A stretch of 64,000 bases of DNA from an uncultured Acidobacteriota bacterium (GCA_963836435.1 CAWIJI010000006.1:62956-126955), one strand, 5' to 3'; shown: positions 17,517 through 45,180, counted from the stretch's first letter. The notes: generated by a model not told the origin, from the sequence alone. A program made the numbers and translations.

Positions 17517-17600
17517 GGTTAAGTTGGGGTGCTTTACCCTGAAGGATGGGCTCCGAAGCGGGCCGGGCAGGCCGCTATTTTTCCGGACTGGCGCATCGGC
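17517..17600. repeat. structured about 80-bp repeat family, copy A
   Basis: The core gttaagttggggtgcttcaccc.gaaggatgg.ctccgaagcgggccgggcaggccgctattttccgg.ctgg contains hairpins GGGTGcttCACCC and GGCCgggcaGGCC. Four copies occur in the window. Confidence 0.6.
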
Positions 17601-17780
17601 ATTTCGAATCACTCGATTCGAAATCTGTGGCGAAGCGCCACGAAGGAAGCGCCGCTCCTGCAAGTTCAGGATCGCCAATCAGCGGCAGATCGTCAAACTG
17701 GACAACCTCACCCTCTTTGATGGAGAACCGACGGCCTTGCGATGCGTACTGCAACGTAAACATTTGCTGGAAGGTGTGTG

Positions 17781-18230
17781 TCACTCAACCCAGAGGACTT
17801 CCAGCCCGAGTAGTTGAGCGACATCTCTCTGGCGGGAATCGGAGGTGATGAATGGCAGACCTCTGGGAAATCGATCGAGCAAGACGGTGGCGCTCGCGAG
17901 ATGTATTGCGTCGAGAGCGCGGACGTCAAAATCCGCCACGTAGCGTTCGGCTTTCTCCAGAACAGATTCGGCCAGCTCTACCAGGCGGAACTTCAAACGA
18001 TGCTGAGAGAATCGCTTCGCCAACGCCGCATGCGATCTTTCATCAATGGCGCCGGATGTCAGATTGCGGCGGAACGCGGACGTCAATTCCACGCCCGCTA
18101 TCGACGACGTCATTACCAGGTGCGTGCGAACAAGTCGCCGGGCTTTATCGGATCCAGCTTCACGGACATAGTTCTTTGCAAGAACGCTGCTGTCAAAGTA
18201 GGCGGCCGATGGGGCTTTCTCATTGATCAC
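17781..18230 (-). CDS. vapC: type II toxin-antitoxin system VapC-family toxin (PIN domain)
   Basis: PIN signature (AYFDSSVLAKNY...LDAIHLASA...) and an overlap with the upstream antitoxin gene. Confidence 0.8.
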   Translation of the reverse strand: MINEKAPSAAYFDSSVLAKNYVREAGSDKARRLVRTHLVMTSSIAGVELTSAFRRNLTSGAIDERSHAALAKRFSQHRLKFRLVELAESVLEKAERYVADFDVRALDAIHLASATVLLDRFPRGLPFITSDSRQRDVAQLLGLEVLWVE

Positions 18231-18498
18231 GCAGTTCCCTCAAGGTTTTTGACAGCAACACGCCCTTCAAACTCAGGGGCTTCCATGAGTCACGGATGAG
18301 CCCAGCCTTCATGTTCGGTCTTAATAGGCCTTCCTGCTCAAGCTCCAGCAGAGTTTCTTCCTCCGAAGCCGCTTTCGAATATGGTTGAATTGTCGCGATA
18401 GGATTGCCTCTCTCCGTTAAAACAACAATTTTCCCCGCTTTGACCGCTTTAATGGCCTTGGAAAAACTCTGATTGGCTTCCCGTAGCCCCATTCTCAT
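18220..18498 (-). CDS. type II antitoxin (Phd/YefM-like) partner of VapC
   Basis: A 92-aa protein whose gene overlaps vapC by 11 nt. The N-terminal ...LREANQSFSKAIKAVKAGKIVVLTERGNPIATIQPY is typical of Phd/YefM-type antitoxins. Confidence 0.65.
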   Translation of the reverse strand: MRMGLREANQSFSKAIKAVKAGKIVVLTERGNPIATIQPYSKAASEEETLLELEQEGLLRPNMKAGLIRDSWKPLSLKGVLLSKTLRELRDQ

Positions 18499-19210
18499 GT
18501 TTTCAACCTCACTACGTCACTACATTACCATTACAGCAGCAAAAGCTGAACTTGATTCCGGGGTTCGCACGATTCGGATCAATCGAAACTGGCTCCGGGC
18601 CGTAGATGGTGCCTTCCAGCGTGACCAGAGCGTTCCGCGCCTTCGTGATTCTCAGCAACTCCTTCATACGCACCTATGGATTCCGGGGATCATTCAACAA
18701 TTGTTCAGCACGTCAGTCATGCGGCCATCGGCCTTAATCGTTGCGACGAAATCCTGACGATCCGCGGCATGACTTCCTTCATGCGCTACCGTCTCTTTGT
18801 TCTTAATGTTGTCTCTTTGAATCCAAACCTTCATTGTGGCCGTGAAACAATCGTTAGCGAAAGCGAGCGGTCCGCGAACAACTTCTCCAGCTCGATCGCG
18901 CAATTTATCGGCGAAACCCACCGTTACCCCGTTGTCCTTCCCGCGCTCCCCATAAGCTCTCGCAAACAGGGAGGGCGGATTATTGAGACATGAGGAAACG
19001 GGCGGATTTCTGATGCTTTGGATTGAACCGTTTGCGGCCTCCGCCCTTCACCTTGTGGAAACATGTTGAAACATGGTGCTTTCGCATCTACAAATTTATC
19101 TACAGTCCGACTTCGTCAGCATCTACAAATTCGCCTACAGCCCAAAGAACGCAGGTAGAAAAAAACTCCAGGTTTTTTCTGGCTTATGCGCTAGGGAATG
19201 AACTCAGAAG

Positions 19211-19459
19211 TTACGTGTTCGAACGGCCGCGTCGCATCTTTTCAGCCTCTTCTTTCGTAAGCGCTATGGCCGGAGCACTCTGTCGTTCCTGCTCAACTTG
19301 AACAACCGTGAGTTGGCGGCCAAGCCTCTTTTCAATAGTAGGAATCATCTCGTCGAAGTCCGGCACTGTAACGATCTCAAGCCCTTCAGGGTTCGGCCTC
19401 GCCGTCAACTCTCCGTAGGCACCGACTTCATAAATCTCGATGGATTTGTTTGGCGGCAT
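19211..19459 (-). CDS. hypothetical small protein
   Basis: An 82-aa ORF between two TA modules with no recognisable family. It lies in a lower-GC stretch. Confidence 0.2.
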   Translation of the reverse strand: MPPNKSIEIYEVGAYGELTARPNPEGLEIVTVPDFDEMIPTIEKRLGRQLTVVQVEQERQSAPAIALTKEEAEKMRRGRSNT

Positions 19460-19528
19460 GACGGGAACCAGGATCGGCAGAAACTCATATCCGTCCCGAG
19501 GAGTTTTTCGGTCGCAGACCTTCCGCCT

Positions 19529-19942
19529 TTAAACCTTTCCCCAGTCTTCCCAATCGAGCCCCTTCACGCGGCTGAACTCTCTCGCGTTTGCGGTTACGAG
19601 CGTCACCCTGTGGCGTAGCGCCTGCCCTGCCATCAACAAATCGTAAGCACCGATGGGGCGGCCTGCTGATTCCAAAGACGCACGCACTGCCCCAGCCGTC
19701 TTAGCGTCTTCTTCCTCGAAGTTCATCAAAACCATCGGCCCTGAAAAAAACGTTCGCAGTCGGTCACGGTTTTGTTCCTTTTGAGTGCTCTTTTCGGCTC
19801 CGTACCAGAGTTCGAAAGCAGCGATCGAGGATACGTGCACAATATCTCCCGTATTAATTGCCTTTTGAAACCGGCTGCGTACGTTGGCAGGCTTACCGTT
19901 AATTAAAGCGATACACGCATTCGTATCGAGGAGATACCTCAA
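19529..19942 (-). CDS. vapC: type II toxin-antitoxin system VapC-family toxin (PIN domain)
   Basis: Begins (M/L)[13 protein letters not shown] with a TTG start. Classic VapC acidic residues are present. Confidence 0.85.
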
Positions 19943-20178
19943 TCGAATATCTCACGACGTGGCGGCGCTGGTTGCTTGCGGTTCCCTTTCTTCATGAACT
20001 CGCCCTTGAATTGATCAAGTTTGCCGAACCATTGACGGACATCTGTCAGCTTCGGCTCAAGAAGTACTCCATTACCCACTTGGCGGATGAGAACCTCATC
20101 CCCTTCAAACCGAAACTCACGAGGGAGCCGAACAGCTTGGCTACGACCGTTTCGAAACAGTTTTGCAGTTTTCGACAC
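19939..20178 (-). CDS. vapB: VapB antitoxin (AbrB/MazE/SpoVT fold)
   Basis: ...[41 protein letters not shown]... overlapping the vapC start. The start is moved to the in-frame GTG (V17 of the ORF-track translation). Confidence 0.75.
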
Positions 20179-20385
20179 AGGCACTCCTATGGTCGATATA
20201 TACCACAAATATATACCAGAACGCATCTTTGAGCAGCAAGTCGACCGAACTTTGAAGCATCGCGCCTCGCCCGACTTCTGGGCTTGTTTCTCCGCATTAC
20301 CTCAACACATCCAAGAACAGGCGCGAAAGAATTTCGAATTACTCAAACAGGATCTTCGGGCTGTGCCACCGCGTCTTTGGTAACT

Positions 20386-20700
20386 ATTGTGCGTACCGTA
20401 TCAGCACTTTTCCCATCGGCCCTTCGGCGAGCCGGGCGAAGGCGGCCGGAAGCTGATCGAAGGAAAACACATGGTCAATGAGCGGCCTCGCTCCGGTCTT
20501 GTTGAGAAGACCCAGCGATGCGTTCCAGGCCTGACGGCTCTCCGAATTCGTGTAGGCGCCGACGGCGACACCGCCGATGCGCAGGCGGCGGAAGAACAGC
20601 GTCGCGGTGTTGAATTGCGGGGCTTCACCGGCCAGACGCCCGACGACGCTGATGCGTCCATGGTCGGAACATAGCCAGTTAAGAGGCCGGTCGAGAGTAT
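20386..20700 (-). pseudogene. MDR-family Zn-dependent oxidoreductase (quinone oxidoreductase-like), C-terminal fragment
   Basis: The minus-strand translation ends ...NASLGLLNKTGARPLIDHVFSFDQLPAAFARLAEGPMGKVLIRYAQ*. The 5' part of the gene is replaced by repeat copy B at 20740. Confidence 0.45.
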
Positions 20701-20739
20701 CGGCTTGTAGAAACCGGGATTTCGGTGTCGTATAAGAGC

Positions 20740-20830
20740 GATTACGTTAAGTTGGGGTGCATCACCCTGAAGGATGGTCTCCGAGGCGGGCCGGGCAGGC
20801 CGCTATTTTCCGGGCTGGCGGCCGAACAAC
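20740..20830. repeat. structured repeat family, copy B
   Basis: Same core as copy A, with the upstream extension tgtcgtataagagcgattac shared with copy D. Confidence 0.6.
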
Positions 20831-20854
20831 CGATACTCCCCGCGATCATCCGTG

Positions 20855-21370
20855 ATCCTGGGAGCCGGAACGACAAAGGCTGTCGCGGCCGACACTGCCA
20901 GAAGGCTGAACAATGGCCCACACGCTCGCATTGGCCAGCAAATTTCCGTCCGCATCACGCACGCGGCCTGAAATCGCCCCGCCACGAACCCACGACAGGG
21001 AGACATCGGCGGCCGGCGGCCGCGGATCGACCGTCACCGTTTGAGTAACGAAGGCCGGATAGACTCCGTTTGAGAGCGCGCCGAAATAACCTTCCAGCTC
21101 CGTCCCGAGGCCGCGGCGGCCTCATGTCGGTGTTCCGCGAGAATTGGCGGATCCAGACACAATGTGGCACGATGTCCCCCACGAAGGAGGGATCTCCCTG
21201 AACTCCAACTCCGGCTCTAATTGCTGAAAGGGTTCCGCCTCACCGAAAAGAATACGCCGTCCCCCAAAGATCGACGGTTCCGTCTGGGCCACTCTATAAC
21301 GGAACACCCGTTATACCGCCCCATCGGTCATACTCTCTCGACACCGCGGTTAAACCGCTTATCCGTCCTA
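20855..21370. repeat. segmental duplication copy 1 (about 510 bp, near-identical to 24233-24745)
   Basis: Aligns base-for-base with 24233-24745 apart from a few mismatches. It contains a CarboxypepD_reg N-terminal remnant (MTVDPRPPAADVSLSWVRGGAISGRVRDADGN). Confidence 0.75.
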
Positions 21371-21382
21371 CAGGCTCCTAGA

Positions 21383-22932
21383 CTAGAAGGCCGTAACGTC
21401 AATCGACCGTCGACCGAGTTCCTCAATTCTCACAGCCTGACCTTTATCTTCGAAGTCTCTAAGAAACAGCTCATTGCGGTAAGCGGCTCCTGCAAGTTCA
21501 CTCCATGCGAACAAGTGATAGGAACCGGGCGCTATACCGCGAAGCTGATACCGCCCGTTGATATCGCTGACAATTGACCGATACAAAACCCCTGCCGATC
21601 GAAGCGGAGCATCAGGCACTAGGGCAACAACAGCGTTTGATAGTTTCTCACCGCTCGAGTTGCGTACCAGCCCCTCGATGACACTGCCCGGCGTGCGAAG
21701 CACGATCTTGAGTTCGGTATCCGTCGTCAACTGCAGACCAGCCGCACGCACATCTTGTCTGTCAGCCTGCGCAGATTCGACATAGGCATCCGGCGGCATA
21801 CCGACAATCTCCAGTTCATAGAGCGCCGGCGAGAATAGCCCGCCAAAGCAACTATAATTCGTGAAAGCTCCGACTCTTTCGGCATGTGGGGCGTCCGTGT
21901 AGAGCTTGCACAGCAGGTCAGGAGGGTCGGAATGGTTGCCGGACGCATCCTCTAATTCAAGGCCCCCTGTTATGCGTAACCCGGGTGACACAGGTATATC
22001 TACCTTGACGTCAGCGTTTCCCACATCGAACGTGGCATGACCGTAATATAGCTCGGCGCTGCCCGCCACGGCGAAAACCTGATCATACCGCCCAAGAGTC
22101 AGTTCCACTGAGGTGCGACCTGGCCCCAGGGTCAGGTCCAGGTTGGGCAAAGCGACCAAAAACGAGCGAGCGATAGTTTCTCCCAGATCTTTTCCATCCG
22201 TGTCGAGAAAACGAAAACTAACCTTCACTGGATTCTGCACCGGCGCAGGCAGCGTGATAGTTGAGAGGCGCATCTCCTCGCCGGCATTTACATGGATGGG
22301 CTGCGCCAGACTTTCGTCCTCTGTTCCCGGATAAAACAGGCGCACCCGACCGACGCGCCCAGAAACGTAGTAGTCTCCTGGCTGTAATCCATAAAGGCGA
22401 TAGGTTCCGCGATCATCCATGCGCCCAAACACTCCGGAGTGTCGGTCACCACCGGCACGCTAATAAGCTTTCGTTTGCCGTGTTCGTCATAGCCGGAACG
22501 AAACAAGTCGACCTTCGCTTGCGTGCCTGGAAACACTTTGCCATTGGAATCCATGACCTGTCCGGTAATGACGGCCTCTCGGCTCATCCGAAGTTCCACA
22601 TCCTGAACAGGTTCAGAAGAAAGTTCCACCCACACCCCCGGTTCACTAGGGAACTTTAGGGCCGCGGGCCTCGAATAAACCATACCGTTACGGGCGGGCC
22701 TGAAGAAGTACCGACCGGGAGGAACGTCAACCGTAAAGTGTCCAGCGGAATCCGTCAGAGCCTGGTAACTGTACCCCGATGAAACAGCGGAGACAGACAC
22801 GCCTTCGAGCGGCAGACCTTTGTCGGCCTCGACAACGACTCCTTGAACTGAACGGATGGTTTGCGCGAAGTTGGATCGCGGCAGCATGAAAATCGCAGTC
22901 GTCAACGTAACTATGAAAATAACTAACCGCAA
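21383..22932 (-). pseudogene. secreted CarboxypepD_reg-like protein (paralog of 424..2010) disrupted by a frameshift near 22400-22440
   Basis: The N-terminal ORF 22288..22932 has a signal peptide and the motif ...DLFRSGYDEHGKRKLISVP.... The C-terminal ORF 21383..22432 has ...DDRGTYRLYGLQPGDYYVSGRV.... The two are collinear with the 424..2010 protein but lie in different frames. Confidence 0.6.
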
Positions 22933-22994
22933 ACTTCCTCCTGGTCACATGGGCTACAATTCACGTTGGTGCCGCCAACTTGAGCGTCTAAATC

Positions 22995-24235
22995 AACACG
23001 ATAAAATCTTAAATGTACTTTCCAAACCGGACAGGCGTGAGTTTGGCGCGGTCGCAACTAACTTCATCATAGAGATCAACTTGTCTAACATCTCATGGAT
23101 CACACTATCCGTGAATTTATTGGTATGGAATGCTCCTCCAACATTTATTGAGCCGTCCCTGAAATCAAGACACAAGATCCTTAAGGGGCGCGGAAACTCA
23201 GGAAGGTGATCAAGCAACCCCATGCGGCTAATGGTTAGATCATTAACTACATCGGGATTCTCGTTCGTCATCAATTCACATGTTACGACCGGGGTTGAGA
23301 ACTCTTGGATAACGTCTGTTTTCGCCGGGTCGACTGCCGTATTATGAGGTCGCTTAGCATACTCCATGGCATCTCTTGAAAAATACTTGCCTCGGATATG
23401 GCATCCTTAACTCGCACGGTAATGTCTCCTAAGGTTTCACGCGATGAAATATCGACTCCCAGGACGCGGAAAGTCGAAAAATCGCCAATCAACAATTCAG
23501 TATGCCTCTGATCGCGATTTGCAAAATAGACGCCAAACGTGGACTCGTGGAATTGCCGACCAAAGATGAAATAGACAGACCGTAGCGGTGGCGAGCACGG
23601 TATACAAAGTCGACTTGTTGCCTGCAATGGCGTTGCGAAGATTCTCGCAGTCGAAGCTTGAAAGTGCTTTCCGTATGACTCTCCCACTCCCATTTCGGTC
23701 TGCTGGTCTTGAATAGAAAGACCGAATCCGGTCGCCCCTACTATGGTCGGTGATCGCCTGATTTCGTTTCGCAGCTGGGCTAGAGGTAGCGCCTCTTGGC
23801 TGATTGAAGGAAACAATATACCGCTTCGGGCCACTTCCGGAATCGATACAATGGGATCAGGATTTTGGAGCGATCGTAACTCAACGATTCTCGCGGCAAG
23901 TGTCTTGATAGTTGGCGTTTTTGAGAATTGCGCCGGGCTCACACTCACGGCAAAGTGTTCTTCCACGAGGTGAAGAAGTTGCGTGAGAAGCAAAGAGTCG
24001 CCCTCAAGTTCCCAGAACCCGTCGTCGCCCCCCAGTTGATCCTTCTTCAGTATTTCTTCCCAGATTCGCGCAAGCTTGAACTCTTCAGGCGTACTACAAG
24101 GTTTGTAGGCCGCATCCAAATTGGGGCGACTCCGACTCTCGGCAGGCAAGGCCGCTGTATTCACCTTGCCATTAAAACCTCGGGGGATCTCGTTCAGAAC
24201 AATGAAGGAAGCGGGAATCATGTGACTTGGAAGTC
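22995..24235 (-). pseudogene. decayed NRPS fragment: adenylation-domain A10 motif, a PCP (thiolation) domain, and condensation-domain pieces
   Basis: A10-like motif LPSHMIPASFIVLNEIPRGFNGKVNTAALP. PCP core DDGFWELEGDSLLLTQL with the Ser attachment site. A C-domain segment FGVYFANRDQRHTELLIGDFSTFRVLGVDIS...ASIFQEMPWSML. The C-domain C-terminus (HTNKFTDSVIHEMLDKL) lies in another frame, so the gene has internal deletions and frameshifts. Confidence 0.55.
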
Positions 24236-24745
24236 TGGGAGCCGGAACGACAAAGGCTGTCGCGGCCGACACTGCCAGAAGGCTGAACAATGGCCCACAC
24301 GCTCGCATTGGCCAGCAATTTCCGTCCGCATCACGCACGCGGCCTGAAATCGCCCCGCCACGAACCCACGACAGGGAGACATCGGCGGCCGGCGGCCGCG
24401 GATGGACCGTCACCGTTTGAGTAACGAAGGCCGGATAGACTCCGTTTGAGAGCGCGCCGAAATAACCTTCCAGTTCCGTCCCGAGGCCGCGGCGGCCTCA
24501 TGTCGGTGTTCCGCGAGAATTGGCGGATCCAGACACAATGTCGCACGATGTCCCCCACGAAGGAGGGATCTCCCTGAACTCCAACTCCGGCTCTAATTGC
24601 TGAAAGGGTTCCGCCTCACCGAAAAGAATACGCCGTCCCCCAAAGATCGACGGTTCCGTCTGGGCCACTCTATAACGGAACACCCGTTATACCGCCCCAT
24701 CGGTCATACTCTCGACACCGCGGTTAAACCGCTTAGACATCGGCC
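24233..24745. repeat. segmental duplication copy 2 (see 20855-21370)
   Basis: Near-identical to 20855-21370. Here its CarboxypepD remnant is fused in-frame to the NRPS fragment. Confidence 0.75.
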
Positions 24746-24786
24746 TTCTCGCATTCATGCTTCGACAGGGGATGCCTGGCTTCAGG

Positions 24787-25326
24787 CTAGGGAATAACCT
24801 CAGCAGCGAGCAGGTTCTCGAGCACGGCGGTTTCACTGATTCCCTCTTTACGTGCCAGTGCTCGCAGCCGCTCAATCGAGCGTGGCGTCAAGCGGAATGT
24901 CTTGGGTACTTTTTTTTCGCCCACCGGTTTCACACGGCGATCACTCAACGGAATGTCCGCCCAAAGCCTGATCTTTGCGTAAGGAACTCCCCTGAATTCG
25001 TTTCCGTCGGCTTTGGAAGCCCGGAGATTGGCGACAACATGCGCCAGATCCTTGTGTCGTTCGGGGTCCAGATCGAAGTGGCGGCCCAGGCGAAGAACCG
25101 CAGCGGGCAGGACTTCCAGAATTCGAGGCTCCACATGCTCCCCCGCCCACAACGCATCATCGAGCCTCAGTCGCTTGTTCGGTTCCGGGCGCAGAGGCAG
25201 GTTCGTCTTGAGAAGACCCTTGGCAACAAGGAACCCCATCGTGTCCAGATAACGCGGATCTTTCCGATTGTTCTCGTCCGTTTTGGCCCGCTTTCGAATC
25301 TGGGCCAGAAGCGCCGCTCGATTCAT
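24787..25326 (-). CDS. hypothetical protein with C-terminal ribbon-helix-helix-like segment
   Basis: The C-terminus KKVPKTFRLTPRSIERLRALARKEGISETAVLENLLAAE resembles an RHH/CopG-like segment. The gene is translationally coupled (ATGA) to the upstream gene. Confidence 0.4.
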   Translation of the reverse strand: MNRAALLAQIRKRAKTDENNRKDPRYLDTMGFLVAKGLLKTNLPLRPEPNKRLRLDDALWAGEHVEPRILEVLPAAVLRLGRHFDLDPERHKDLAHVVANLRASKADGNEFRGVPYAKIRLWADIPLSDRRVKPVGEKKVPKTFRLTPRSIERLRALARKEGISETAVLENLLAAEVIP

Positions 25327-25823: not shown

Positions 25824-25966
25824 TTAAGTCATTGCATTTAAACATATTTAAATCGTACATACAATGACTATTTTGGGAAAATCGCAGTCGGGTGAATTCG
25901 ATGGGGACGCCCCAAAGACCTCGAAGACGCCTGCGATGTCCTGCGGTCCAGGGGGACGATCTCGAA

Positions 25967-33237: not shown

Positions 33238-33416
33238 GAACGACTATTGCTTTGAAGGCGGCTGCTGAAGGTTTTGGAGTTCGATTCCCTCACACGCGTG
33301 ACCAGAGCCTGAAAAAGCTGTTGGAGATGGGGAAGGTCGCTGCATCACCGCGCTTGAGACGGGTTCAGGACCTAGAATCCCGATGTCGATGTCCGAGCAG
33401 CGATCCGTTGGATCAA

Positions 33417-33515
33417 TTCGGCCCAAGTATGATTCTTCCGTTTTCTTGCTTCTTTCCCGGACTCCGGGGCGCCAGGTGTTTCCTTGTCGGGGGACCTCGC
33501 TTCCGAGCGTCAGTT
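33417..33515. repeat. about 95-bp IS91-transposase 3' fragment (solo copy)
   Basis: Near-identical to 16109-16205 and 45447-45540. Confidence 0.55.
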
Positions 33516-33549: not shown

Positions 33550-34252
33550 ATGAAATACGCCAACCTCGGTGGCACCGGTATCAGCGTGTCGCGCATCTGC
33601 CTCGGCATGATGACGTATGGTTCCAGGCAATGGCGCGACTGGGTTCTGGAGTACCCGGAGGCGAAACCGTTCGTCACACGCGCGCTCGAAGCCGGCGTCA
33701 ATTTCTTTGACACGGCGGACGTCTATTCCAACGGCGCGTCGGAGGAAGTATTGGGCCGCGCACTGCGGGAGATCGGCGTGGACCGTAACGACGTCGTCAT
33801 CGCGACGAAATGCAACTTCGGTGCAGAACCACTACAACCTGCTGTACCGCGAAGAGGAGCGGGAAATGATTCCGCTGTGCGCCGATCAGAAGGTGGGGCT
33901 GATCCCGTGGAGTCCTCTTGCCCGCGGATACCTGGCACGTGATCGCGGGACGCTGAAGGCGACCACGCGTGCGAACTCCGATGAGTTCACGAAGGTCCTG
34001 TATGACCCGGAGTTCGATGGCGCCCTCATCCAGCGCAATGCCGAAACGGCGGCGCGGCTGGGCGTCAAGCCGGCGCAGACGGCGCTCGCCTGGCTGCTCG
34101 CCAAACCCGGTGTGGTCGCCCCGATTGTCGGCGCTTCCAAGCTCCCGCATCTGGATGACGCGATCGCCGCCGTCGATCTGGAACTCTCCGCAGACGACGT
34201 TAAACAACTTGAATCGCTGTACGCGCCGCGCGCCGTTGCCGGACATTCGTAG
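33550..34252 (+). pseudogene. aldo/keto reductase with internal deletion and frameshift
   Basis: AKR N-terminus (MKYANLGGTGISVSRICLGMMTYG...NFFDTADVYSNGASEEVLGRAL...VIATK). It then jumps at about 33820 into a different frame carrying the AKR C-terminal half (QNHYNLLYREEERE...LIPWSPLARGYL...IVGASKLPHLDDAI). The central catalytic part is missing. Confidence 0.55.
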
Positions 34253-34373
34253 TAAACCGCTGACGCAGTAGTTGCAGCCCACAACGTTTGTAGCCCGCAC
34301 AGGCAGGAAGAGCGCTCTTTGGCTGAAGGATACAGACCGGAGATCTCAATAGGGACACTGGATGGGGGCTTTT

Positions 34374-35053: not shown

Positions 35054-35309
35054 AGGGAGATGTTACGGGAATTGAGGGACCTTGACCGATTTTTTCCAAA
35101 CAACTTGAATCGCTGTAGGCGCCGCGCGCCGTTGCCGGACATTCGTAGTCTCGGAACGTTGGAGCTGAATCGTTACTGCACGGACTGGGGCACGCCTGTC
35201 TCGAAGAACTTCACCAGCGCATTCTGGCTGGCGGATTGGTCGCCGGCCTCGTGATGGACGTTGGAGAAGCTGCGACGCAGGAAAGGGGGCCCGCGCTTCC
35301 CTATGCCCG

Positions 35310-36935: not shown

Positions 36936-36939
36936 CCTT

Positions 36940-38367
36940 CTAAAATCCTTTCGACTCGCCGGGTGCGAGTTCGATCGCGGTTTGCTCACAATCGGCCGCG
37001 GAGAGCCAGCGTGGACTAAGATCCGTTGCGGATTTTTTCGTGAAGCAATACCGGCCGGGCGTGAGGCCCTCGAAGCGAAACTCCGGCGAGCCTGGAAACA
37101 CGGCCTGCACCGGCGCTTCACGACCCGGAGTCACGTCACGCAGCAGGATCACGTTCGCGCCTCGAGCGTCGCCATGAATCATGCCGGGCGGCTGAAATCC
37201 CAGGATCACGCGCTGCGGAGGAACGTTGCCCCGCATATCGAACAGGGGCTCGGTCACGCCCGTGCATCCGCCGCTCGTGCTTTGCGCGCTGACGGCGAAC
37301 AACGTCGGTCCGACGTTCTCGATGCGCGTGGGAGCCTGCTGCGTAGCAATGTGCGCGATGATCTTCTGATCGCGGACGAGCGGCCAGAATCCGAGAGACT
37401 GAAGCGTCAGGGTCCCGTCCGGGGAGCAGCCGGCATGGGGGCTGTCTGGTGCCACCACGAACTCCACGGTACGCCCCGGTTGCAGTCGAATATCCAGGTT
37501 CTCGACGTTCTGGCCATGCAGATCCAGGTGCACGTGTTCAAAGAACGACGGCGGCATGACCGGCCCTGATGCGTACAACTCGTAGGCGCCGGGTTGGAAG
37601 TTATCCAGCTTGAAGGCGCCGTCTGCAGCCGTCAGCGTGAGTTGCGCCCGGACTGACGGATAGTCCGAGGGCGTGATCGTCAGGGTGTAAGTCTGCTGGC
37701 CCGCCGGCGAAGAGATCCTGCCGCTGATCGTGGACGTTCCTTGAGGCTGCACGACAAAGTCAGGAACGTCGTATTGCTCACCCCCGGCGATTTCAAACTC
37801 GCGAGGCCGTGCGTTGGCCGGATAGAGCGCGAATCCGCGGGCCACGCCCGGAAGTGTATTCGCACTGATGAACGGCGCGGACAGCACGTAACGGCCGGGA
37901 GGAATGCCGTAGACACGGAAGTCGCCGGCCGCGTCGATCATTCCCGAATAGGTGCGCGGGATCCGATGCAGCGGCACCTGTTCAATGACGAGCACGGCGC
38001 CGCCGTTTCGGGGAGGGGTGATGTGTCCGGCGATAACGCCGTATTTGACGAGACGCAAAACGGGAATTGCCGTTGAAGCCTGGGTCGCCGTCATAGCCGC
38101 GTCCAGGCTCGCGTAGTTTGCCTTGGTGATGCTGACCCGATAGACGCCGGCAGCGACGTCCAGGAATTCGAAACCGCCGCTTCGGCCGGTTTGCGTTTCC
38201 TTCACGGTGACTCCGGCGGCGGTCTTCAATCGCACGGACGCTGCGAGCACCGCGGCGTCCGAGTGGTCTTCGAGAACTGTGCCGCGAAGCACTTCAGCGC
38301 GCGCGACTCCGGTCCAGGTGGTCAGGAAACTCAGGGCCAATAGACATCGGGCGTTCACGGTTTTCAA
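36940..38367 (-). CDS. secreted CarboxypepD_reg-like domain protein (tandem with 35310..36935)
   Basis: Signal peptide MKTVNARCLLALSFLTTWTGVARA and CarboxypepD_reg modules (LRGTVLEDHSDAAVLAASVRLKT...). Confidence 0.7.
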   Translation of the reverse strand: MKTVNARCLLALSFLTTWTGVARAEVLRGTVLEDHSDAAVLAASVRLKTAAGVTVKETQTGRSGGFEFLDVAAGVYRVSITKANYASLDAAMTATQASTAIPVLRLVKYGVIAGHITPPRNGGAVLVIEQVPLHRIPRTYSGMIDAAGDFRVYGIPPGRYVLSAPFISANTLPGVARGFALYPANARPREFEIAGGEQYDVPDFVVQPQGTSTISGRISSPAGQQTYTLTITPSDYPSVRAQLTLTAADGAFKLDNFQPGAYELYASGPVMPPSFFEHVHLDLHGQNVENLDIRLQPGRTVEFVVAPDSPHAGCSPDGTLTLQSLGFWPLVRDQKIIAHIATQQAPTRIENVGPTLFAVSAQSTSGGCTGVTEPLFDMRGNVPPQRVILGFQPPGMIHGDARGANVILLRDVTPGREAPVQAVFPGSPEFRFEGLTPGRYCFTKKSATDLSPRWLSAADCEQTAIELAPGESKGF

Positions 38368-38747
38368 ACACTATAACCGCCAGCCGGGATCCTGCAATGT
38401 TATTTTTATAACGGATGTGTTGTCACGCCGCTGCTTAACTCGGTTTACCTTTCACCGCCCGCAATCCCCCAGATCCGGCGCCGCGATGGCACCCTCCGAA
38501 CATCCTGAGCCTCGGGAGTAAGTGTCGCATAAAGCAGAACGTTTTTAGCGTAGCGACGCGGCGAGTCAAGATCAGCATGGAAAGCTCCTTTGCGAATTGG
38601 AATTTGCTGCGATCAGCAGCCTCCATGGTTTCGCAAGGAACTTGTACGAGGAAGAACTCCGTTAGATTCTCATGACGCGGGAAACTGGCAGGCCCATCGA
38701 CAACCCATCGGCCAGCAACCTACCGCAGCAGCGGTTTAGTCCAAGAG

Positions 38748-38830
38748 CGATTACGTTAAGTTGGGGTGCTTCACCCTTGAAGGATGGTCTCCGAAGCGGG
38801 CCGGGCAGGCCGCTATTTTCCGGGCTGGGC
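38748..38830. repeat. structured repeat family, copy C
   Basis: Same core as copies A, B and D. Confidence 0.6.
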
Positions 38831-38926
38831 TTCTGGTGACGTTGACATCAGCGGGTTGCGGGACGACGTTGGCGGAGGCCTTTTGCCTTGCACGGCTCGC
38901 GCGTACGCACCTATATTGGGCCGTCC

Positions 38927-39448
38927 ATGAATCCTGTGGATAACCTTCACGTTTTGGCGTTCCTCTGGTTCGCGGGCGCGGCGACCTTTTTTTTCATAAT
39001 CGCTCAGCGCTTCTTCGCCCGGTCGCAGGAGACCTGGCTGGTGGCTGTTGTGCTGGCCGTGCTGCCTGGCCTCCTGATCCCGCTCATGTGTCACTACAGT
39101 TTGCTGCTTGGCCGCACGCCCGCCTTGATCTACCTCGGATTTGCGGGGCTCGTGACACTCTGGGGCGTCTTGCGAAACGGCAAGACACCTGGTAACCCGC
39201 CTGCAATCCCTCCGGGGACACTCGTCAGTCTGGCTGCGATACCGCTTTCCGGAACACTGGTAGCGTTCATCCTCATGGAGGACGACGTCAGCCAGTGGTG
39301 GAGCTGGCTTCCTTTCGTGATGACGCTCGCTCATGGAGTTGCGATCGGGATTGCGCGGCTGGTGGTGGGACGGCGCGCGCCGGCTGCGGGGGAATCCTCA
39401 GACATGGTTGCAGCGCCCCATGCATCCGTTTGCGAAGGTCTTGCTTGA
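38927..39448 (+). CDS. hypothetical integral membrane protein (4-5 TM)
   Basis: A hydrophobic ORF with TM segments (LHVLAFLWFAGAATFFFII..., WLVAVVLAVLPGLLIPL...). It overlaps the decayed RT fragment on the opposite strand. Confidence 0.3.
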   Translation: MNPVDNLHVLAFLWFAGAATFFFIIAQRFFARSQETWLVAVVLAVLPGLLIPLMCHYSLLLGRTPALIYLGFAGLVTLWGVLRNGKTPGNPPAIPPGTLVSLAAIPLSGTLVAFILMEDDVSQWWSWLPFVMTLAHGVAIGIARLVVGRRAPAAGESSDMVAAPHASVCEGLA

Positions 39449-39722
39449 TCCGTAGCAGCGTCCTCTGTATCCGCTTCCTATCCGTCCGACGTAGTATCGT
39501 GAACGCCCCCGTTTTCGCGTTCTTCCCACAGATATGCGTGAAGCCGAGAAAGGTGAACGATTCCGGTTTTCCTTCTCCACGTTTGGCGCGGTTCGCTTCG
39601 GCGAACCGACCAAACTCGATGAGCCGGGTTTTCTCGCCATGAAGCTCCAGTCCAAACTTCGCCAGCCGTTCCTTGAACTCCGTCAGGAACTGCTCGGCTT
39701 CCTGCTTGTGCTGAAATCCCAC
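39400..39722 (-). pseudogene. group II intron reverse-transcriptase fragment (RT domains 6-7) lying 3' of another intron's domain V
   Basis: ...LELHGEKTRLIEFGRF...ESFTFLGFTHICGKNAKTGAF... carries the FLGF signature of the group II intron-encoded protein RT domain 7. The sequence degenerates after about 39400. Confidence 0.5.
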
Positions 39723-39768
39723 GACAAGGTGAGTAAGGCCCGGGGAGTTTCACCCCGAGCCTCTCGCA

Positions 39769-39802
39769 GAACCGTACTTGAACGTCTCCGCTCATACGGC
39801 TC
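39769..39802 (-). ncRNA. group II intron catalytic domain V
   Basis: The minus-strand sequence is GAGCCGTATGAGCGGAGACGTTCAAGTACGGTTC. It matches the group II domain-V consensus GAGCCGUAUG...CGUACGGUUC, including the AGC triad and the bulged stem. Confidence 0.55.
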
Positions 39803-40787
39803 CCGCCATGGAACCTCTCCGCACGCCCATAGTCCAATGGGCAAACACCTGCGGAGCGCGCCGTGAAATTCGGGCGATCCAATGTGCGGCGCGCCGCTTG
39901 TGACGGCGCAGTTTCTTGTATTTCCGTGACGCCCAGCGCGTCAACGCGCGGTCCAGCGTGCGCATGGACGGATACATTGCCGAGCGGTAGTACCGCCCGT
40001 AGTACTGGAGCCAACCTCGAACGATCGGGTTAAACATCCGGGAGAGATCTTCGATGGACTTATCACTGCATCTGGCCAGGTGCCAGCTCCGAATCTCCGA
40101 CCGTATGGCTTTCGCGGCTTTGTTTGAAACCGCCGGCGTGAAATTGATGAAGAACTTTCCCGCTCCAGTATCCAGTTCACTCGCTTGCTCGCGATTCCCA
40201 CGCTTAACGCATCCAGCGCTCGATGGAAATTTCTTCCGGGACGAAACCCATAGGAGAATCCCGGAAACTCGGCCTCGTAGATTTCGTTGAGGATTGACGC
40301 CACTGCCTGTTGAACAAAATTTGTCCGCCAGTGCAGCAATGCCAATCGGACGTTTCCGTCCGTCCGGCTTTGGGATGTAAATTCTCAGTGAGGATTGTGC
40401 CCGCTAGGCTCCGCGATGCACTCGGCCGTGTAGATCCTTCAAGCGATCTTCCACTCCTTTTTCGTACTCCCTCCACGTCATCTCATCGACTCCCGCGGCT
40501 GCTGTCTTCTTCAGATGCAGAAAACTGCTCCGCAGCAAATCGACCGTCAGGTGGTGGAGTAGGCTCGTGAACCGTTCCTGCTTCTTTTCCTTTGCAGTAC
40601 GGCGCACACGTTGAAGCCCCGTTGACACGTCTTTGTCCCCGCTCGGCGTCGTGGACGTGTGTTGCTCCATCATGTTCTCCTTGTTCGGCGGCCTTCCCTC
40701 CGGACTTCTCCTCCCGTGCTTCATGCCACGTTCGTTCGAATCCTTCATCGGTACTACGCCGCTGTCCGACTCCTCGCCTCCGTTCAT
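39792..40787 (-). pseudogene. group II intron-encoded RT/maturase (IEP), nonsense- and frameshift-disrupted
   Basis: RT domain 0/1 (40404..40787: ...FTSLLHHLTVDLLRSSFLHLKKTAAAGVDEMTWREY...) ends at an in-frame TAG. RT domains 1-2 (39941..40345: QQAVASILNEIYEAEFPGFSYGFRPGRNFHRALDAL) lie in another frame. Maturase domain X (39792..40037: ...IVRGWLQYYGRYY...) is in a third frame. RT domains 3-7 are missing. Confidence 0.6.
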
Positions 40788-41173
40788 GTCCGTCGTGCGG
40801 CCTTGGCCTTCACGGACCGGCCTGATCTCTCAGGCGGCGACGAGGCCTCCCGGTTCTCGTGCATGTTGTTTCTTTGCGTGCGCGGGGTCTACGACTACGG
40901 AGGACTCGACCGACGCTCGCTTAGCGCGCCAGCCAATGGTGCCTTCTCCCTCAGCCTAAAAGATCGGCGTCCCCAATTGGGTTTTCGAAGCTCAATACCC
41001 GGCCCGCAAATGCCTCTGTCTACGCTTCAGTTCTGGCCTCGCGGCCAGCGCTGCAAGACTCAAGGTCAGGATGGTTTGCTACTCCTTTCCTGTAGGACTC
41101 TTTCATTCCCTACAAGATGCCGGTTTATCCCGGCGCACAGGCTGTCCCCAGAACTCCAACTTGAACTGGGAAC

Positions 41174-41533
41174 TTATTTGGCGTCTCTGCCGGAAACCCC
41201 TGAGGATTGCCGAATCCAGCCTAGTAGGGCGGCACGCATCGCTTGGTGAACGTTGAGAGACTTCTTGCGAGCGATGTTTTCCAGGTCTTTCCAAAGGGCC
41301 TCAGGCAATCGGACCGATCGCACCGTTGAAGTTTGCTTCCTGCCTTTGCGGGGTCGTCCGCGGCGGAGTAGTACCGCATCCGTGGTGAGCTCAGGCATTT
41401 CCCAAAGGGCTAGCAGTCCTGGACCGCCTTCTTCTCCAGATCCGGCGAACGCATTGCGGCGTACCGGTCCGAAGCGAGTGAAATCGATTTGTCGATCCAG
41501 AGGATCAGTCGTTTTCGTAGTGGCTTTTTTCAT
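41174..41533 (-). CDS. brnA: BrnA-like ribbon-helix-helix antitoxin
   Basis: ...RGRPRKGRKQTSTVRSVRLPEALWKDLENIARKKSLNVHQAMRAALLGWI... immediately downstream of and overlapping brnT. Confidence 0.55.
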   Translation of the reverse strand: MKKATTKTTDPLDRQIDFTRFGPVRRNAFAGSGEEGGPGLLALWEMPELTTDAVLLRRGRPRKGRKQTSTVRSVRLPEALWKDLENIARKKSLNVHQAMRAALLGWIRQSSGVSGRDAK

Positions 41534-41771
41534 GTTTCGTTGCCCGTCTCGCGCTGATTATCCGAATTTCATTCTGCAAAACTTCGGCATGGACGACATA
41601 GAGAAGCCGGCCTTGCTCTGAGTATCCGATCAGGATGAAGCGATCCTTGTGCAGCGTATCGGGATAGTAGGCGCCTAAGGGATCGCCGAATGCGGATGAA
41701 GCCTCGTCAAACGACACTCCATGTTTCCTGAGATTCGATTTGGCTTTTCTTTCGCTCCAGACAAATCGCAC
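41505..41771 (-). CDS. brnT: BrnT-family toxin
   Basis: (V/M)RFVWSERKAKSNLRKHGVSFDEASSAFGDPLG...EDRFILIGYSEQGRLLYVVHAEV...IRIISARRATKHEKSHYE matches the BrnT signature. The start is taken at the internal GTG, residue 48 of the ORF-track translation. Confidence 0.7.
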   Translation of the reverse strand: MRFVWSERKAKSNLRKHGVSFDEASSAFGDPLGAYYPDTLHKDRFILIGYSEQGRLLYVVHAEVLQNEIRIISARRATKHEKSHYEND

Positions 41772-41844
41772 GCAGAATATTGTATTACATTTATAAGTTC
41801 GAGCGATGATGAGATGAAGATGAGACGGACTCCATGCGGAATTC

Positions 41845-43062
41845 TTAAACAGAAGCGACCGGTGTGTCGAAGTAATGGATCGTTCGATGCTCGGTGCACC
41901 AGATCTGGCCATCGGGCGCTGTAACGATCTTTTCGATCCAGTTGCCGTGGTTGTCGTATTTATAGCGGGTCAGAGTTTCCGAATGACGGCCGCGCGCACT
42001 CTCAGGCGCGGTTACAAGAGAGCCGTCTTCGGCCAAAGTGTATTCGCTGTTTAAGGCTTCGGAGATCTCCAGAACGACGTCGCCATGATCGTTGTATGCG
42101 AAGGTGGTGTTGTCGTGATCGTTCGCAACCCGGCGTCCGGACGTTTCGATGCGGCGGTTATGATCGTCGTATCGATGGCGTCGGCCGAAGATAAAAAACT
42201 GGGTCAATGCAGCCACCTGCTCCGCATTACACTGCGCCACGATCTCTGGAGGGAGTCTCTGCGGAATCGAAGTTTCTTCGATGAGATTGCCCCGATCGTC
42301 ATAGAGAAGATCAATCCGCGAGATCCGCTCGCCGCTGCTGTCGTAGGCGAGATGTTCGGCCGGCCGGCCAAGTTCGTCGTAATTGCAAGTGATGCTCACG
42401 ACGCCGGGCATCCCGAAACCCATCTCCGATCCTTCGACTCCGATAAAGACGCCGCAGTTTTCGCGTGCCGGAATTGGTTCGAGGTGAACTACTTTGTGTT
42501 TCTTGCCGTCAGGATTGTAACTGTAGGCCTCCGCGACGCGCGAAAAGCCGTCTTTGTCCGGCACGTTGACACGAACGAGTCTACCCGTAGAGTCGTATTC
42601 AAGTTTTCTCACGACTGTCGACTTTCCGTCCTGTTCGATGCGTTCCGCAATCAAACGATCGCTGTCGTTGTCGTATTCGTAGAAGCAGGTCCATTCAGGG
42701 TGCGGAGGCGGGTCTTTGTGATACCGCCGGTAGAGCAGACCATCCGGACGGAACTCCACCGTCGTCCAATCGATTCGCTCGGTTGTGTCGCACGCTTGCG
42801 GACCGCATCCCCGCGAATACGAGACCCGTTGAAGTTCGCAGAGTTTTACAGCGCCACGTAACGAGAATCGGTGACGATCCGTCATGTTCTCGGAGTCTTG
42901 CATCAATAGGGAGAGGCCGTCAAACGATTCAGTTTGCTGTTTTTCATGCGGGATCGGTCGCGCTGGAAGACGTGATGAAATCCACAAGACCAGGGTGAGC
43001 GTTGGACTCTCCGGGCGCCGGGAAAGAAAGCGGATCTCTCCCGGTTGCGGGAGGTCTGGCAT
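41845..43062 (-). CDS. YD-repeat (RHS-like) protein, no signal peptide
   Basis: Multiple YD-type repeats (YEYDNDSDRLIAE, EYDSTGRLVRV, YSYNPDGKK, YDSSGERISRIDLLYDDRGNLIEE, AYNDHGDVV, YKYDNHGNWIEK). The start is uncertain (internal Mets at about 42885-42900). There is no RHS core or toxin tip. Confidence 0.45.
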   Translation of the reverse strand: MPDLPQPGEIRFLSRRPESPTLTLVLWISSRLPARPIPHEKQQTESFDGLSLLMQDSENMTDRHRFSLRGAVKLCELQRVSYSRGCGPQACDTTERIDWTTVEFRPDGLLYRRYHKDPPPHPEWTCFYEYDNDSDRLIAERIEQDGKSTVVRKLEYDSTGRLVRVNVPDKDGFSRVAEAYSYNPDGKKHKVVHLEPIPARENCGVFIGVEGSEMGFGMPGVVSITCNYDELGRPAEHLAYDSSGERISRIDLLYDDRGNLIEETSIPQRLPPEIVAQCNAEQVAALTQFFIFGRRHRYDDHNRRIETSGRRVANDHDNTTFAYNDHGDVVLEISEALNSEYTLAEDGSLVTAPESARGRHSETLTRYKYDNHGNWIEKIVTAPDGQIWCTEHRTIHYFDTPVASV

Positions 43063-43204
43063 ATGTCACATTGTGCATGTAGATCGGGGCCGGATTACCC
43101 CGAAGCTTCGAGAGCACGTGCCGAAGTTAAATGCTGCTGGTGTCATCTATCTATTTCTACATGGCCCTTATGCTCGCGGCACGACAGTTTGTGACGAGAC
43201 GCGA

Positions 43205-43262
43205 GAACATAGGAGTTTTAAGAGGCCGGTCGGGAGTGTACTCCGATGCGCGATCCCGGCCT
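43205..43262. repeat. about 55-bp direct repeat (copy 1) derived from a tyrosine-integrase coding segment; left boundary of a low-GC island
   Basis: ataggagttttaagaggccggtcgggagtgtactccgatgcgcgatcccgg recurs at 45025-45080. It encodes NIGVLR(G/D)RSGV(Y/C)SDARSR. Confidence 0.5.
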
Positions 43263-43391
43263 GACTCAACGTCGTACATGCCAATTGCGTTGTTTTTTTC
43301 ATCTGTAACCGCTACAGCTCTCCCGGAAAAGATGAACTGTGGAATCGCATCGCTGGAGACTGAAAGCGTGCGCTTTGGTATTAGTTTCAAA

Positions 43392-43736
43392 TCACTCCCT
43401 CCTGTGCCTTGGGCAAAGTGATAGAGCAGTAATTGCAAAGAGCACTCCGAATAGCCTCACCATGAGATCCCCTTCCTTTAGTAGCCGCATGAGTAGAGCC
43501 GCACCCATTTTAGCCTTATCCATCATTTGTCGTACTTGGTAGGGATTACTGCCTCCTCTTACAACGTCAATGATATGGCCTAGACCGCGATGAGGGTCGA
43601 TATCGACATCGACTCGCTTGCCATCTGCGCTGAATGAAAACTGAAGAGACCCGCCCCCGAAGTTTTTCTTGAAACTCTTGGTGTATCCCGGATGTAATCC
43701 CCCGCTGACCTTGCTGAAGCCGTTCTTCTTGGTCAT
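43392..43736 (-). CDS. hypothetical protein in low-GC island
   Basis: A 114-aa ORF (…FGGGSLQFSFSADGKRVDVDIDPHRGLGHIIDVV…) in a stretch of about 50% GC. No family assignment. Confidence 0.25.
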   Translation of the reverse strand: MTKKNGFSKVSGGLHPGYTKSFKKNFGGGSLQFSFSADGKRVDVDIDPHRGLGHIIDVVRGGSNPYQVRQMMDKAKMGAALLMRLLKEGDLMVRLFGVLFAITALSLCPRHRRE

Positions 43737-43867
43737 CTGGTGTGTGTTGCATTGGAGTTTGTGGCGGGAGGAGTAATCGATATAACGATTCCAATGGGCG
43801 TTGTGGGAATCCAGAGTTACGATGCCGGACGCAGGTCAGAGTCTTCACCACGACGCGGAGCAAGGAT

Positions 43868-44287
43868 ATGGACTGGGAAACTGTGATTAAAATCGCGGTA
43901 GCTGTCGTACCGGTTGTGATCGCGTGGGCGGCCAACGAATTCAGCAAACGACGTTCGGAAGAATATCTACGCAGAGAAGCAAACTACAGAGCACTCGTAC
44001 TTGCGCTCAAGGGCTTCTACGTTGGTGGAAGTGAGGAGGACAAGGCGGCATTTCTGGAGCAGCTAAACCTTGGCTGGCTTTACTGCCCTGATGATGTCAT
44101 TCGTAAAGCCTACTCATTCCTCGATACGGTGCACACTGACGCAGGTATAAACGATGATGGCGCTAAGGAGCGTGCGCTGGGCGATTTCGTTGCCGCCGTT
44201 CGGGAGGATCTGATCTCACGCGAGCCTGTCAGAGAAACTGGCCTGACTGGTCGTGACTACAGACTTCTCACAGTTAATCGTCGTTGA
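43868..44287 (+). CDS. hypothetical membrane-anchored protein in low-GC island
   Basis: MDWETVIKIAVAVVPVVIAWAANEF... One N-terminal TM helix followed by a soluble domain. The start is taken at M43 of the ORF-track translation. Confidence 0.25.
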   Translation: MDWETVIKIAVAVVPVVIAWAANEFSKRRSEEYLRREANYRALVLALKGFYVGGSEEDKAAFLEQLNLGWLYCPDDVIRKAYSFLDTVHTDAGINDDGAKERALGDFVAAVREDLISREPVRETGLTGRDYRLLTVNRR

Positions 44288-44513
44288 AGGCGGAACCGAG
44301 AGCGACCGCCTGCAATCACTTTCGTAGCTATCCCCCATGTAACTGAGGTGTTGGACACAGCTTTGTCTAAGACATGAACTGCAACATCCCCTTACAGGAT
44401 TCGAACCCGCGTCTTCCGGTGTTACCCGGAGATCCTGACCACCCTCTGTGCCAATGTAGCTGAGACACCTTACCCCTGATAATTACTGAGCAGGGCGGAA
44501 GGAAAAAAACAAA

Positions 44514-45092
44514 ATGCAGAACGAAGTTCAACCACTGTCCCCGACCCCTCTTTCGGCCTTGGTTGAGGCGGGACGGAGTGAGGGCGAGCATAGCGAGACC
44601 GAGCGGAGTGCCGCCTCAACCAAAGCCGGCGCCGACGCGGCCGGCGTGGCCCGGCCCGATCCGGAGGTCGTCGCGAAAGCAAAGCGGCGGCGATTCACCG
44701 CCAAGTACAAGCAGCAGGTTTTGGCAAAGGCCGACGCGGCGGCGTCTGACCCTGGCGCCATCGGAGCGCTGTTGCGGCGCGAGAGACTCTACTCCTCGCA
44801 CCTGGTAGCGTGGCGTCGACAACGGGACGCCAGCACTCGACAAGGCCTCGAGCCCCGGAGACGCGGCCCGAAGCCGAAGCGGAATCCCATGGCTGAACAA
44901 ACGGGGGATTTGATCGGAAAAATCCGCGTCATGAAGGTTAGGGTGATGGTCGCGATGGCGATCACGGTCGGCCTTCGCCGCGGAGAATTGATCGGCCTTT
45001 GTTGGAGGCATCTCGACCTGAACATAGGAGTTTTAAGAGACCGGTCGGGCGTATGCTCCGATGCGCGATCCCGGGTTTTCAGTGTCGTATAA
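44514..45092 (+). mobile_element. composite remnant: IS3-family OrfA-like transposase N-terminal fragment fused to a tyrosine-integrase fragment
   Basis: ...PDPEVVAKAKRRRFTAKYKQQVLAKADAAASDPGAIGALLRRERLYSSHLVAWRRQRDAS... is IS3/IS911 OrfA-like. The tail ...ITVGLRRGELIGLCWRHLDLNIGVLRDRSG... resembles a tyrosine-recombinase catalytic-domain segment and runs into the 55-bp direct repeat. Confidence 0.5.
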
Positions 45093-45094
45093 GA

Positions 45095-45180
45095 GCGATT
45101 ACGTTAAGTTGGGGTGCTTCACCCGGAAGGATGGTCTCCGAAGCGGGCCGGGCAGGCCACTATTTTCCGGGCTGGCGGCG
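45095..45180. repeat. structured repeat family, copy D (immediately 3' of the IS91 tnpA stop)
   Basis: Same core as copies A-C. It sits between the integrase fragment and the IS91 transposase stop at 45256, so it may be the IS91 oriIS-side terminus. Confidence 0.55.

Follow-up and report, generated by a model that had tools for sequence, protein, structure and literature searches.

Results

A family of short, hairpin-bearing repeats recurs in a 64,000 nucleotide (nt) stretch of DNA from an uncultured Acidobacteriota bacterium (GCA_963836435.1 CAWIJI010000006.1:62956-126955), the whole of which is referred to here as the window, with positions counted from its first letter. We consider, with a probability of roughly 80%, that each of these repeats is a dispersed copy of a non-coding segment, sub-terminal on the 3′ side, of a rolling-circle insertion sequence of the IS91/ISCR family, which is active in this genome now or was so formerly. 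This reading is based on the boundaries of a resident element that carries the repeat, on homologues of the repeat at the same position in relatives of that element, on one copy (B) that is bounded by GAAC at both ends, and on a comparable unit, likewise devoid of the transposase gene tnpA, in another organism.

Copies of the repeat

A 34-nt core pattern, searched for with up to three mismatches, was found exactly four times in the window, always on the + strand (17540, 20768, 38778 and 45125), while 100 dinucleotide-preserving shuffles yielded no match. Four-way alignment and nhmmer delimited a core of approximately 77 base pairs (bp) in copies A (17518-17593), B (20746-20820), C (38755-38829) and D (45103-45177), with a pairwise identity of 92–97%, and the original prediction of four copies of a core of some 80 bp is thereby confirmed. 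The further sequence that had been said to precede D was likewise recovered: on the low-coordinate side B and D have approximately 75 more bases in common, up to a GAAC that is followed by ATAG, and C matches 12–25 more. The orientation that had been given for D required reversal since tnpA is located on the minus strand, so that the + strand repeat represents the reverse complement of the element orientation.

Copy D of the core occupies 45091-45177 (-; pattern, alignment and nhmmer) within the insertion sequence, copy B together with its GAAC target 20667-20827 (-), copy C, which is core only, 38732-38829 (-; unambiguous homology from 38743), and copy A, core only and the shortest, 17518-17595 (-; alignment and nhmmer). 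Sensitive self-comparison with the region around D revealed that the related pieces exceed four, as it uncovered a diverged copy, core only and inversely oriented (F, 7931-8033, +; nhmmer), a solo ori end (E, 43205-43259, -; nhmmer) and three tnpA fragments. In piece E, GAAC is followed by ATAG and a further 51 nt, in which the palindrome is nearly intact; a decayed continuation may extend to about 43291, where the similarity is no better than that of shuffles.

The resident element and its ends

Copy D is contained in a defective IS91/ISCR-family insertion sequence at 45024-46678 (-), which measures 1,655 bp following an internal deletion and runs from its terminus (terIS) side at 46678 to an origin (oriIS) end, ...CTAT, at 45024. 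Its tnpA (45256-46521, -) specifies a HUH/Y2 rolling-circle transposase on the basis of a Y2_Tnp match in Pfam (expectation value E=4.6e-26) and 631 homologues at E<=1e-10; a HUH-like HIH motif is readable in ...NLNVHIHMVCIDG. The closest full-length homologues (505–540 amino acids (aa), e.g. P0002 and P0006) combine Zn_Tnp_IS91 (PF14319) with Y2_Tnp (PF04986), and those that are named derive from metagenome-assembled genomes (MAGs) of Terriglobia/Acidobacteriia. BLASTP alignment with P0002 (505 aa, 85% identical) is split into two blocks, residues 63-151 and with them the zinc-binding region being missing from the window protein; the absence of the Zn domain is due to this internal deletion, and given the lost residues the window copy is probably defective. 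When compared to NCBIfam models the window protein scores 245 bits for ISCR clade Ia and 36 bits for IS91, both below the cut-off, and P0002 attains 365 of the 925 bits required for the former and 88 of the 125 required for the latter. By these scores the parent transposase is related to IS91 and ISCR clade Ia, the models nearest to its family, while being a member of neither curated clade.

The extent of the element was established by blastn, in which positions 568-2494 of the metagenome locus L002, the contig that carries P0002, are colinear with the window from 46672 to 45020, straight through the core, and stop there. The right end reads ...CTCTTAAAACTCCTAT and is flanked directly by the target tetranucleotide GTTC (45020-45023, -; GAAC on the + strand). 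This junction of CTAT with GTTC occurs beside unrelated flanks in D, B, E and L002, in the form ...CT(C/G)TTAAAAnnnCTAT followed by GTTC, and in two different contexts in L041-L045; variants are seen in L004 (CTAT followed by CTTC) and L027 (GACTAT followed by CCTC). The oriIS part of D (45024-45090, -) holds a degenerate subterminal palindrome in addition to the terminal CTCTTAAAACTCCTAT, the palindrome GGAGTATACTCC being intact in L002, L004 and L006, nearly intact in E and altered by two mismatches in D. At the opposite side, the terIS-like left end (46644-46678, -) consists of GTCG and then an imperfect palindrome, GAAAACGCG...CGTGTTTTG, which in L003 is perfect save for one extra T. Alignment of the left ends places a tetranucleotide (GTCG in the window, TTCG in L002 and GCCG in L003) ahead of GAAAAC(G/A)(C/A)G...CGTGTTTT in all three, and the exact position of terIS cleavage is putatively assigned from these sequences.

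The termini CTCTTAAAACTCCTAT and CGCTTGAAAAGACTAT resemble GGGCGTTTGAACTTCCTATAC, a sequence downstream of an annotated IS91-family transposase beside IS26 on plasmid NZ_CP146289.1, and the ori end is thus similar to known oriIS ends. The IS91-family element in question on that plasmid is one which we take to be ISCR2. In the IS91 family, oriIS is situated 3′ of tnpA, contains subterminal palindromes and lies beside a GTTC/CTTG target without target duplication, while terIS has one subterminal palindrome next to the tetranucleotide of the cleavage site (PMC13181058). The parent element presents the same features, with an oriIS of this composition 3′ of tnpA at an unduplicated GTTC and, 5′ of tnpA, a single subterminal palindrome beside the cleavage tetranucleotide, and the comparison with published family ends that had been proposed earlier therefore recovered both hallmarks. 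The parent would work in the manner of an IS91/ISCR-family element, and it shows the ends by which that family is defined.

The element is inserted at GTTC in an open reading frame (ORF) at 44514-45023 (+), which is thereby interrupted. The translation of this ORF (...AITVGLRRGELIGLCWRHLDLN) reads by eye like a tyrosine recombinase, and it returned no Pfam match.

Position of the core

In element orientation the 3′ non-coding region is composed of a spacer of approximately 80 nt after the tnpA stop (45178-45255, -), the core of approximately 85 nt, which reads CCAGCCCGGAAAATAG...CTCTTAT, and the ori part of approximately 70 nt. The spacer contains a stem, AGAGC...GCTCT, followed by TTGTTTT; the same stem is present in L003 and GGGCC...GGCCC occurs at the equivalent place in L004, and the structure may represent the tnpA terminator. 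The core is consequently situated about 70-155 nt inside the ori end, sub-terminal and distinct from the terminus, and the actual terminus, ...CTAT followed by GTTC, is present in the window at B, D and E only. The original prediction had D abut the tnpA stop and considered the repeat a candidate oriIS/terIS end left behind by one-ended transposition: an IS91-family gene is indeed adjacent, the IS91 link is real and the one-ended model fits B well, but the core ends about 80 nt from the stop codon and is internal to the ori end.

A homologue of the core is located between the tnpA stop and the ori end of several metagenome relatives, namely L002 and the near-identical L041-L046 (transposase identity to the window copy of 85%), L003 (86%), L004 (72%) and L036 (54%); the more distant L037-L039 are without most of it.

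Two further observations concern these relatives. At about 2941-3160 of L042, L044 and L045 an L002-type ori end abuts GTTC within the C-terminal region of another IS91-type tnpA (...RKKDRRQNYSWAELMKRVYEIDV), an arrangement which, as read from the contigs, is a nested insertion; the upstream flank of this site joins a different downstream flank in L041, L043 and L002. The element flank at 37-437 of L002 is 87% identical to a gene at 10822-11222 of the window, which indicates that JGI sample 3300046823 contains an organism fairly closely related to that of the window.

Copy B and a comparable unit elsewhere

On the + strand, which corresponds to the strand transferred in IS91 transposition (PMC13181058), copy B reads GAAC followed by ATAG, the core and finally GGCCGAAC, and throughout its length, ori terminus and core alike, it aligns colinearly with D. 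It starts at a GAAC target (20667-20670), ends on an internal GAAC and contains no tnpA, thereby forming a continuous fragment of 157 bp from the ori end to an internal ter- or target-like tetranucleotide (20671 ATAG...GGCCGAAC 20827), the subterminal ori palindrome of which is degenerate.

As had been noted previously, B adjoins a truncated gene of the medium-chain dehydrogenase/reductase (MDR) type: its left flank holds the C-terminal remnant of an MDR dehydrogenase (20390-20680, -; ADH_zinc_N_2 positions 45-132 of 134, E=6e-5). A search for the N-terminal half of this gene with an Escherichia coli Qor query missed even the known fragment. The right flank is a 504-bp duplicate of 24235-24735; the two flanks are consequently not contiguous, being derived from different genes. 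The duplication itself (20858-21361 and 24235-24735) is direct, 98.8% identical and covers a frameshifted CarboxypepD_reg-like coding sequence, and the copy next to B begins 31 nt from its inner end, which may reflect co-mobilisation with B or coincidence.

A looser 19-base pattern returned 28 loci in metagenomes, 26 of which are chance matches and the remaining two, L027 and L028, real; no similar DNA was found among the plasmids of PLSDB. L027 is a core-plus-ori unit without tnpA on a 5.8-kilobase (kb) metagenome contig. Copy F is 83.5% identical to it over 91 nt with the same inner boundary, which identifies F as derived from a different, L027-type sub-lineage of the insertion sequence.

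Core-only copies and tnpA fragments

Similarity to the ori part in the flanks of A, C and F was no better than in shuffles, and these copies are taken to be truncated relics from which the ori end has gone. Copy A starts 2 nt past the TGA (17513-17515) of a TM7S3/TM198-like gene (16778-17515), F is located between the convergent genes 6894-7943 (+) and 8148-9500 (-), and C is preceded by CAAG (38742-38745, + strand) where D has TAAG. L028 contributes a solo core copy of the L002 type (1529-1621) approximately 15 nt past the stop codon of a 459-aa gene; this copy and A thus directly follow stop codons, in sense orientation. Core-only copies are accordingly known from three sub-lineages (A and C of the D type, F of the L027 type and L028 of the L002 type), and on both the inner and the outer side their ends lie no more than about 20 nt apart. 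An ORF running through the core was also used as a protein-database query aimed at spurious ORF calls over other copies, and returned no candidates.

The tnpA fragments cover residues 179-256 (13370-13603, -; 95% DNA identity to 45776-45987) and, twice, the C-terminal linker (16105-16203, -, 97% identical to 45448-45546; 33384-33506, -, in which 33406-33506 is 100% identical to 45440-45540). The two linker fragments of approximately 100 bp both derive from the part of tnpA that precedes ...NHTWAELIQRVF, have almost equal boundaries, occupy unrelated intergenic contexts and are 97–100% identical to the resident copy; the one at 33384-33506 is located approximately 110 nt upstream of a truncated aldo/keto reductase gene (33617-34252, profile positions 157-290 of 291). 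Interrogation of the window by tblastn with four more distant transposases revealed no further tnpA fragments.

All eight D-type pieces (window 13370-46678) share one orientation and, followed along the window, their coordinates in the element decrease in two runs (756, 428, 83, 0 and then 420, 72, 0), a pattern for which a bias in insertion orientation, local rearrangement or chance may be responsible. That the pieces might be one element split by insertions was considered and rejected, since they follow one another along the window in the reverse of the colinear order. A replication direction, sought as an explanation for the shared orientation, could not be read from GC skew.

Secondary structure of the core

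The conserved hairpins of the original prediction stood in part, as both stem-loops (GGGTGcttCACCC and GGCCgggcaGGCC) are present in the copies, but there is little covariation and only the GGCC hairpin is partly conserved across relatives. A C>T change in the stem of copy A and a loop change in B are both uncompensated. Pairing was scored on an alignment of 11 core versions, the structure being derived from those same sequences: helix 1 (GGCC...GGCC) is paired in 77% of cells and exhibits one clear compensatory change (GGCC/GGCC to GACC/GGTC in L003, G-C to A-U), while helix 2 (GGGTG...CACCC) is paired in 57% only and is essentially confined to the window copies. Single-strand folding energies are not lower than those of shuffles (z about +0.6 to -2.0), the core region has no Rfam match even at E<=1 and the hairpin is not flagged by a simple terminator scan. 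Hairpin conservation among the window copies would thus seem to reflect mainly the recency of copying. In L028 the hairpin GCCTCcgagGAGGC is perfectly paired, while the element-borne L002 version has a mismatch.

Genomic surroundings

A group II intron was detected by Rfam at 39728-41101 (-; D1-D4 at 40885-41101, 173 bits; D5-D6 at 39728-39804, 54 bits); ORFs 39941-40345 and 40404-40787 inside it have no Pfam match, and the intron-encoded protein seems to be degraded or absent. The window additionally contains a PIN-domain toxin gene (19529-19942, -), a fragment of an RHS-repeat protein gene (41845-43062, -) and segments of lower G+C (0.54-0.55) at 16-24 kb and 40-44 kb. Together with the interrupted ORF 44514-45023, these features suggest that the region is a decaying mobile island. 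Further repeats are clustered at 56452-56963, where units of about 120-175 bp recur in direct and inverted orientation (76–86% identity), and a 52-bp direct repeat occurs at 34202-34253 and 35098-35149 (98% identity).

Discussion

The organisation of the parent element may be summarised as terIS (tetranucleotide and palindrome), tnpA, a spacer of approximately 80 nt, a core of approximately 85 nt and an oriIS part of approximately 70 nt that ends in CTAT next to the target GTTC. As established for IS91 and IS801, the transposase introduces a bottom-strand nick behind the GAAC of the ori junction, whereupon the nicked strand is displaced toward terIS and cut a second time after a ter-like tetranucleotide. 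D is the core within the resident, defective element, and in such a scheme B would be a 157-bp miniature that arose when transfer terminated prematurely at the internal GAAC just past the core and the product was inserted beside another GAAC. Copies A, C and F, now without the ori terminus, would be older or have undergone rearrangement, and E has kept that terminus only; the route by which A, C and F lost their ori part, like any cis function that the core may have in the element, is one that we infer. For IS801, right-end derivatives of 229, 360 and 679 nt have been trapped experimentally, representing about 26% of IS801 transposition events, and were read as one-ended transposition that stopped at an internal tetranucleotide (PMC3189936). 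The repeat family of the window is transposon debris of the kind already documented for that element.

Several results weigh against this interpretation. The flanks of B are non-contiguous and come from different genes, so that this locus may equally well have arisen by rearrangement as by transposition. Between B and D the ori parts are 84% identical and the cores 96%, which implies that B is of mosaic origin, underwent gene conversion or decayed unequally. The inner ends of A, C, F and L028 are without a tetranucleotide of the GAAC/CAAG type, and ends that nearly coincide would not be predicted from random deletion. Finally, the exact core pattern had no match in the scan of genome contigs or in metagenome contigs, and a scan of genome contigs based on tnpA encountered only one distant Terriglobia locus with no copy of the exact repeat.

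The most serious competing explanation, though on balance an unlikely one, is that deletion and rearrangement within a decaying genomic island have reduced a small number of full-length insertions to all of these pieces, B included, with no transposition of miniatures at all. The region is certainly a patchwork, with truncated MDR, aldo/keto reductase and integrase-like genes, the 504-bp duplication, three tnpA fragments and the group II intron, and most genomic fragments of IS801 were themselves concluded to be reorganisations (PMC3189936); the non-contiguous flanks of B point in the same direction. Against rearrangement stand a copy delimited by a GAAC target and an internal GAAC, and the analogous core-plus-ori unit without tnpA in another organism, the inner boundary of which is shared by F. 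We regard premature termination, as opposed to deletion, as the putative origin of B. Far less probable, indeed very improbable, is the independent miniature inverted-repeat transposable element (MITE) of the original prediction, that is, a small mobile or REP-like (repetitive extragenic palindromic) element with ends of its own that happened to enter the 3′ part of the insertion sequence. There are indeed core-only copies, the ends of which are similar (A, C, F and L028), and the window cores are 92–97% identical against 84% for the adjoining ori parts of B and D, but the homologues that span the length of the core and occupy the corresponding position in L002, L003, L004 and L036, the transposases of which are 54–86% identical, argue that no such element landed independently in this one insertion sequence. 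Moreover, A, C and F have neither terminal inverted repeats nor target duplications, and copy ends vary by up to about 20 nt.

It also appears improbable that the core-only copies have been retained for use by the host, either as a bottom-strand 3′-end hairpin or terminator (GCGGGCCgggcaGGCCGC and then TATTTT) or as a small RNA. This proposal would draw on the location of A, L028 and F, each in sense orientation and respectively 2 nt past a stop codon, approximately 15 nt past one and 3′ of gene 8148-9500, on the better pairing of the L028 hairpin relative to its element-borne L002 counterpart and on the single compensatory change in helix 1 of L003. Three sense orientations out of three are nevertheless not significant, B lies antisense inside a pseudogene, F lacks helix 1, helix 2 is paired in little over half of cells, and neither the terminator scan, nor Rfam, nor the comparison of folding energies with shuffles singled out the hairpin.

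The near-coincident ends, the location of A and L028 directly behind stop codons, the common orientation with its descending order and the CAAG junction of C could reflect a preferred internal point of cleavage or deletion, gene conversion, selection or, with few examples to hand, chance. One rather speculative proposal, to which we attach little weight, is that the core of approximately 85 nt is a discrete module which has been moved by the transposase through internal pseudo-ori and pseudo-ter sites or has been domesticated repeatedly by hosts, for instance as a 3′-end hairpin or terminator. It is put forward because three sub-lineages left core-only copies with ends within about 20 nt and because A, F and L028 each follow a gene closely, in its sense orientation, mobilisation through pseudo-sites being suggested by the CAAG that precedes C where the parent has TAAG. 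The recurring ends would be of wider interest only if such a mechanism, or domestication, were true.

Taking the repeats as dispersed copies of the sub-terminal segment, the repeats and several truncated genes of the window can be annotated as the debris of one IS91/ISCR-type element, and both ends are defined for a poorly sampled and apparently acidobacterial branch of this family. The window would furthermore provide a natural example, outside Pseudomonas, of the ori-end miniatures shown experimentally for IS801.

With IS91, IS801, IS1294 and ISCR1/2/8 the window element has in common an HUH/Y2 transposase, asymmetric ends and insertion without target duplication, as well as a terIS with one palindrome by the cleavage tetranucleotide and an oriIS with subterminal palindromes and a terminal ...CCTAT next to GTTC/CTTG. 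It differs from these elements in that its transposase scores below the NCBIfam cut-offs for both ISCR clade Ia and IS91, the full-length relatives nearest to it derive solely from soil-type metagenomes and MAGs of Terriglobia, and its 3′ non-coding region is long (about 235 nt) with a lineage-specific, hairpin-bearing insert. Copy B and L027 resemble the IS801 miniatures of Pseudomonas syringae pv. phaseolicola (Bardaji et al. 2011, PMC3189936), which likewise lack tnpA, keep the ori end, stop at an internal tetranucleotide and insert beside GAAC-type targets without duplication, just as B, over 157 bp, runs from one GAAC to another; genomes with IS801-type elements also hold many fragments attributed to rearrangement, as does the window (PMC3189936). 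In contrast to IS801, the host phylum and the insertion-sequence lineage are different and mobility is putative here, and while IS801 derivatives never lose the ori end, most of the window copies (A, C and F) are without it. A looser resemblance, and no more than that, exists with the non-autonomous Helitrons of eukaryotes, in which a rolling-circle Y2 HUH system has likewise given rise, among gene fragments, to short derivatives with nothing but terminal sequences in common, a 3′ subterminal hairpin among them, while termini, hosts and transposase architecture set Helitrons apart from the window element.

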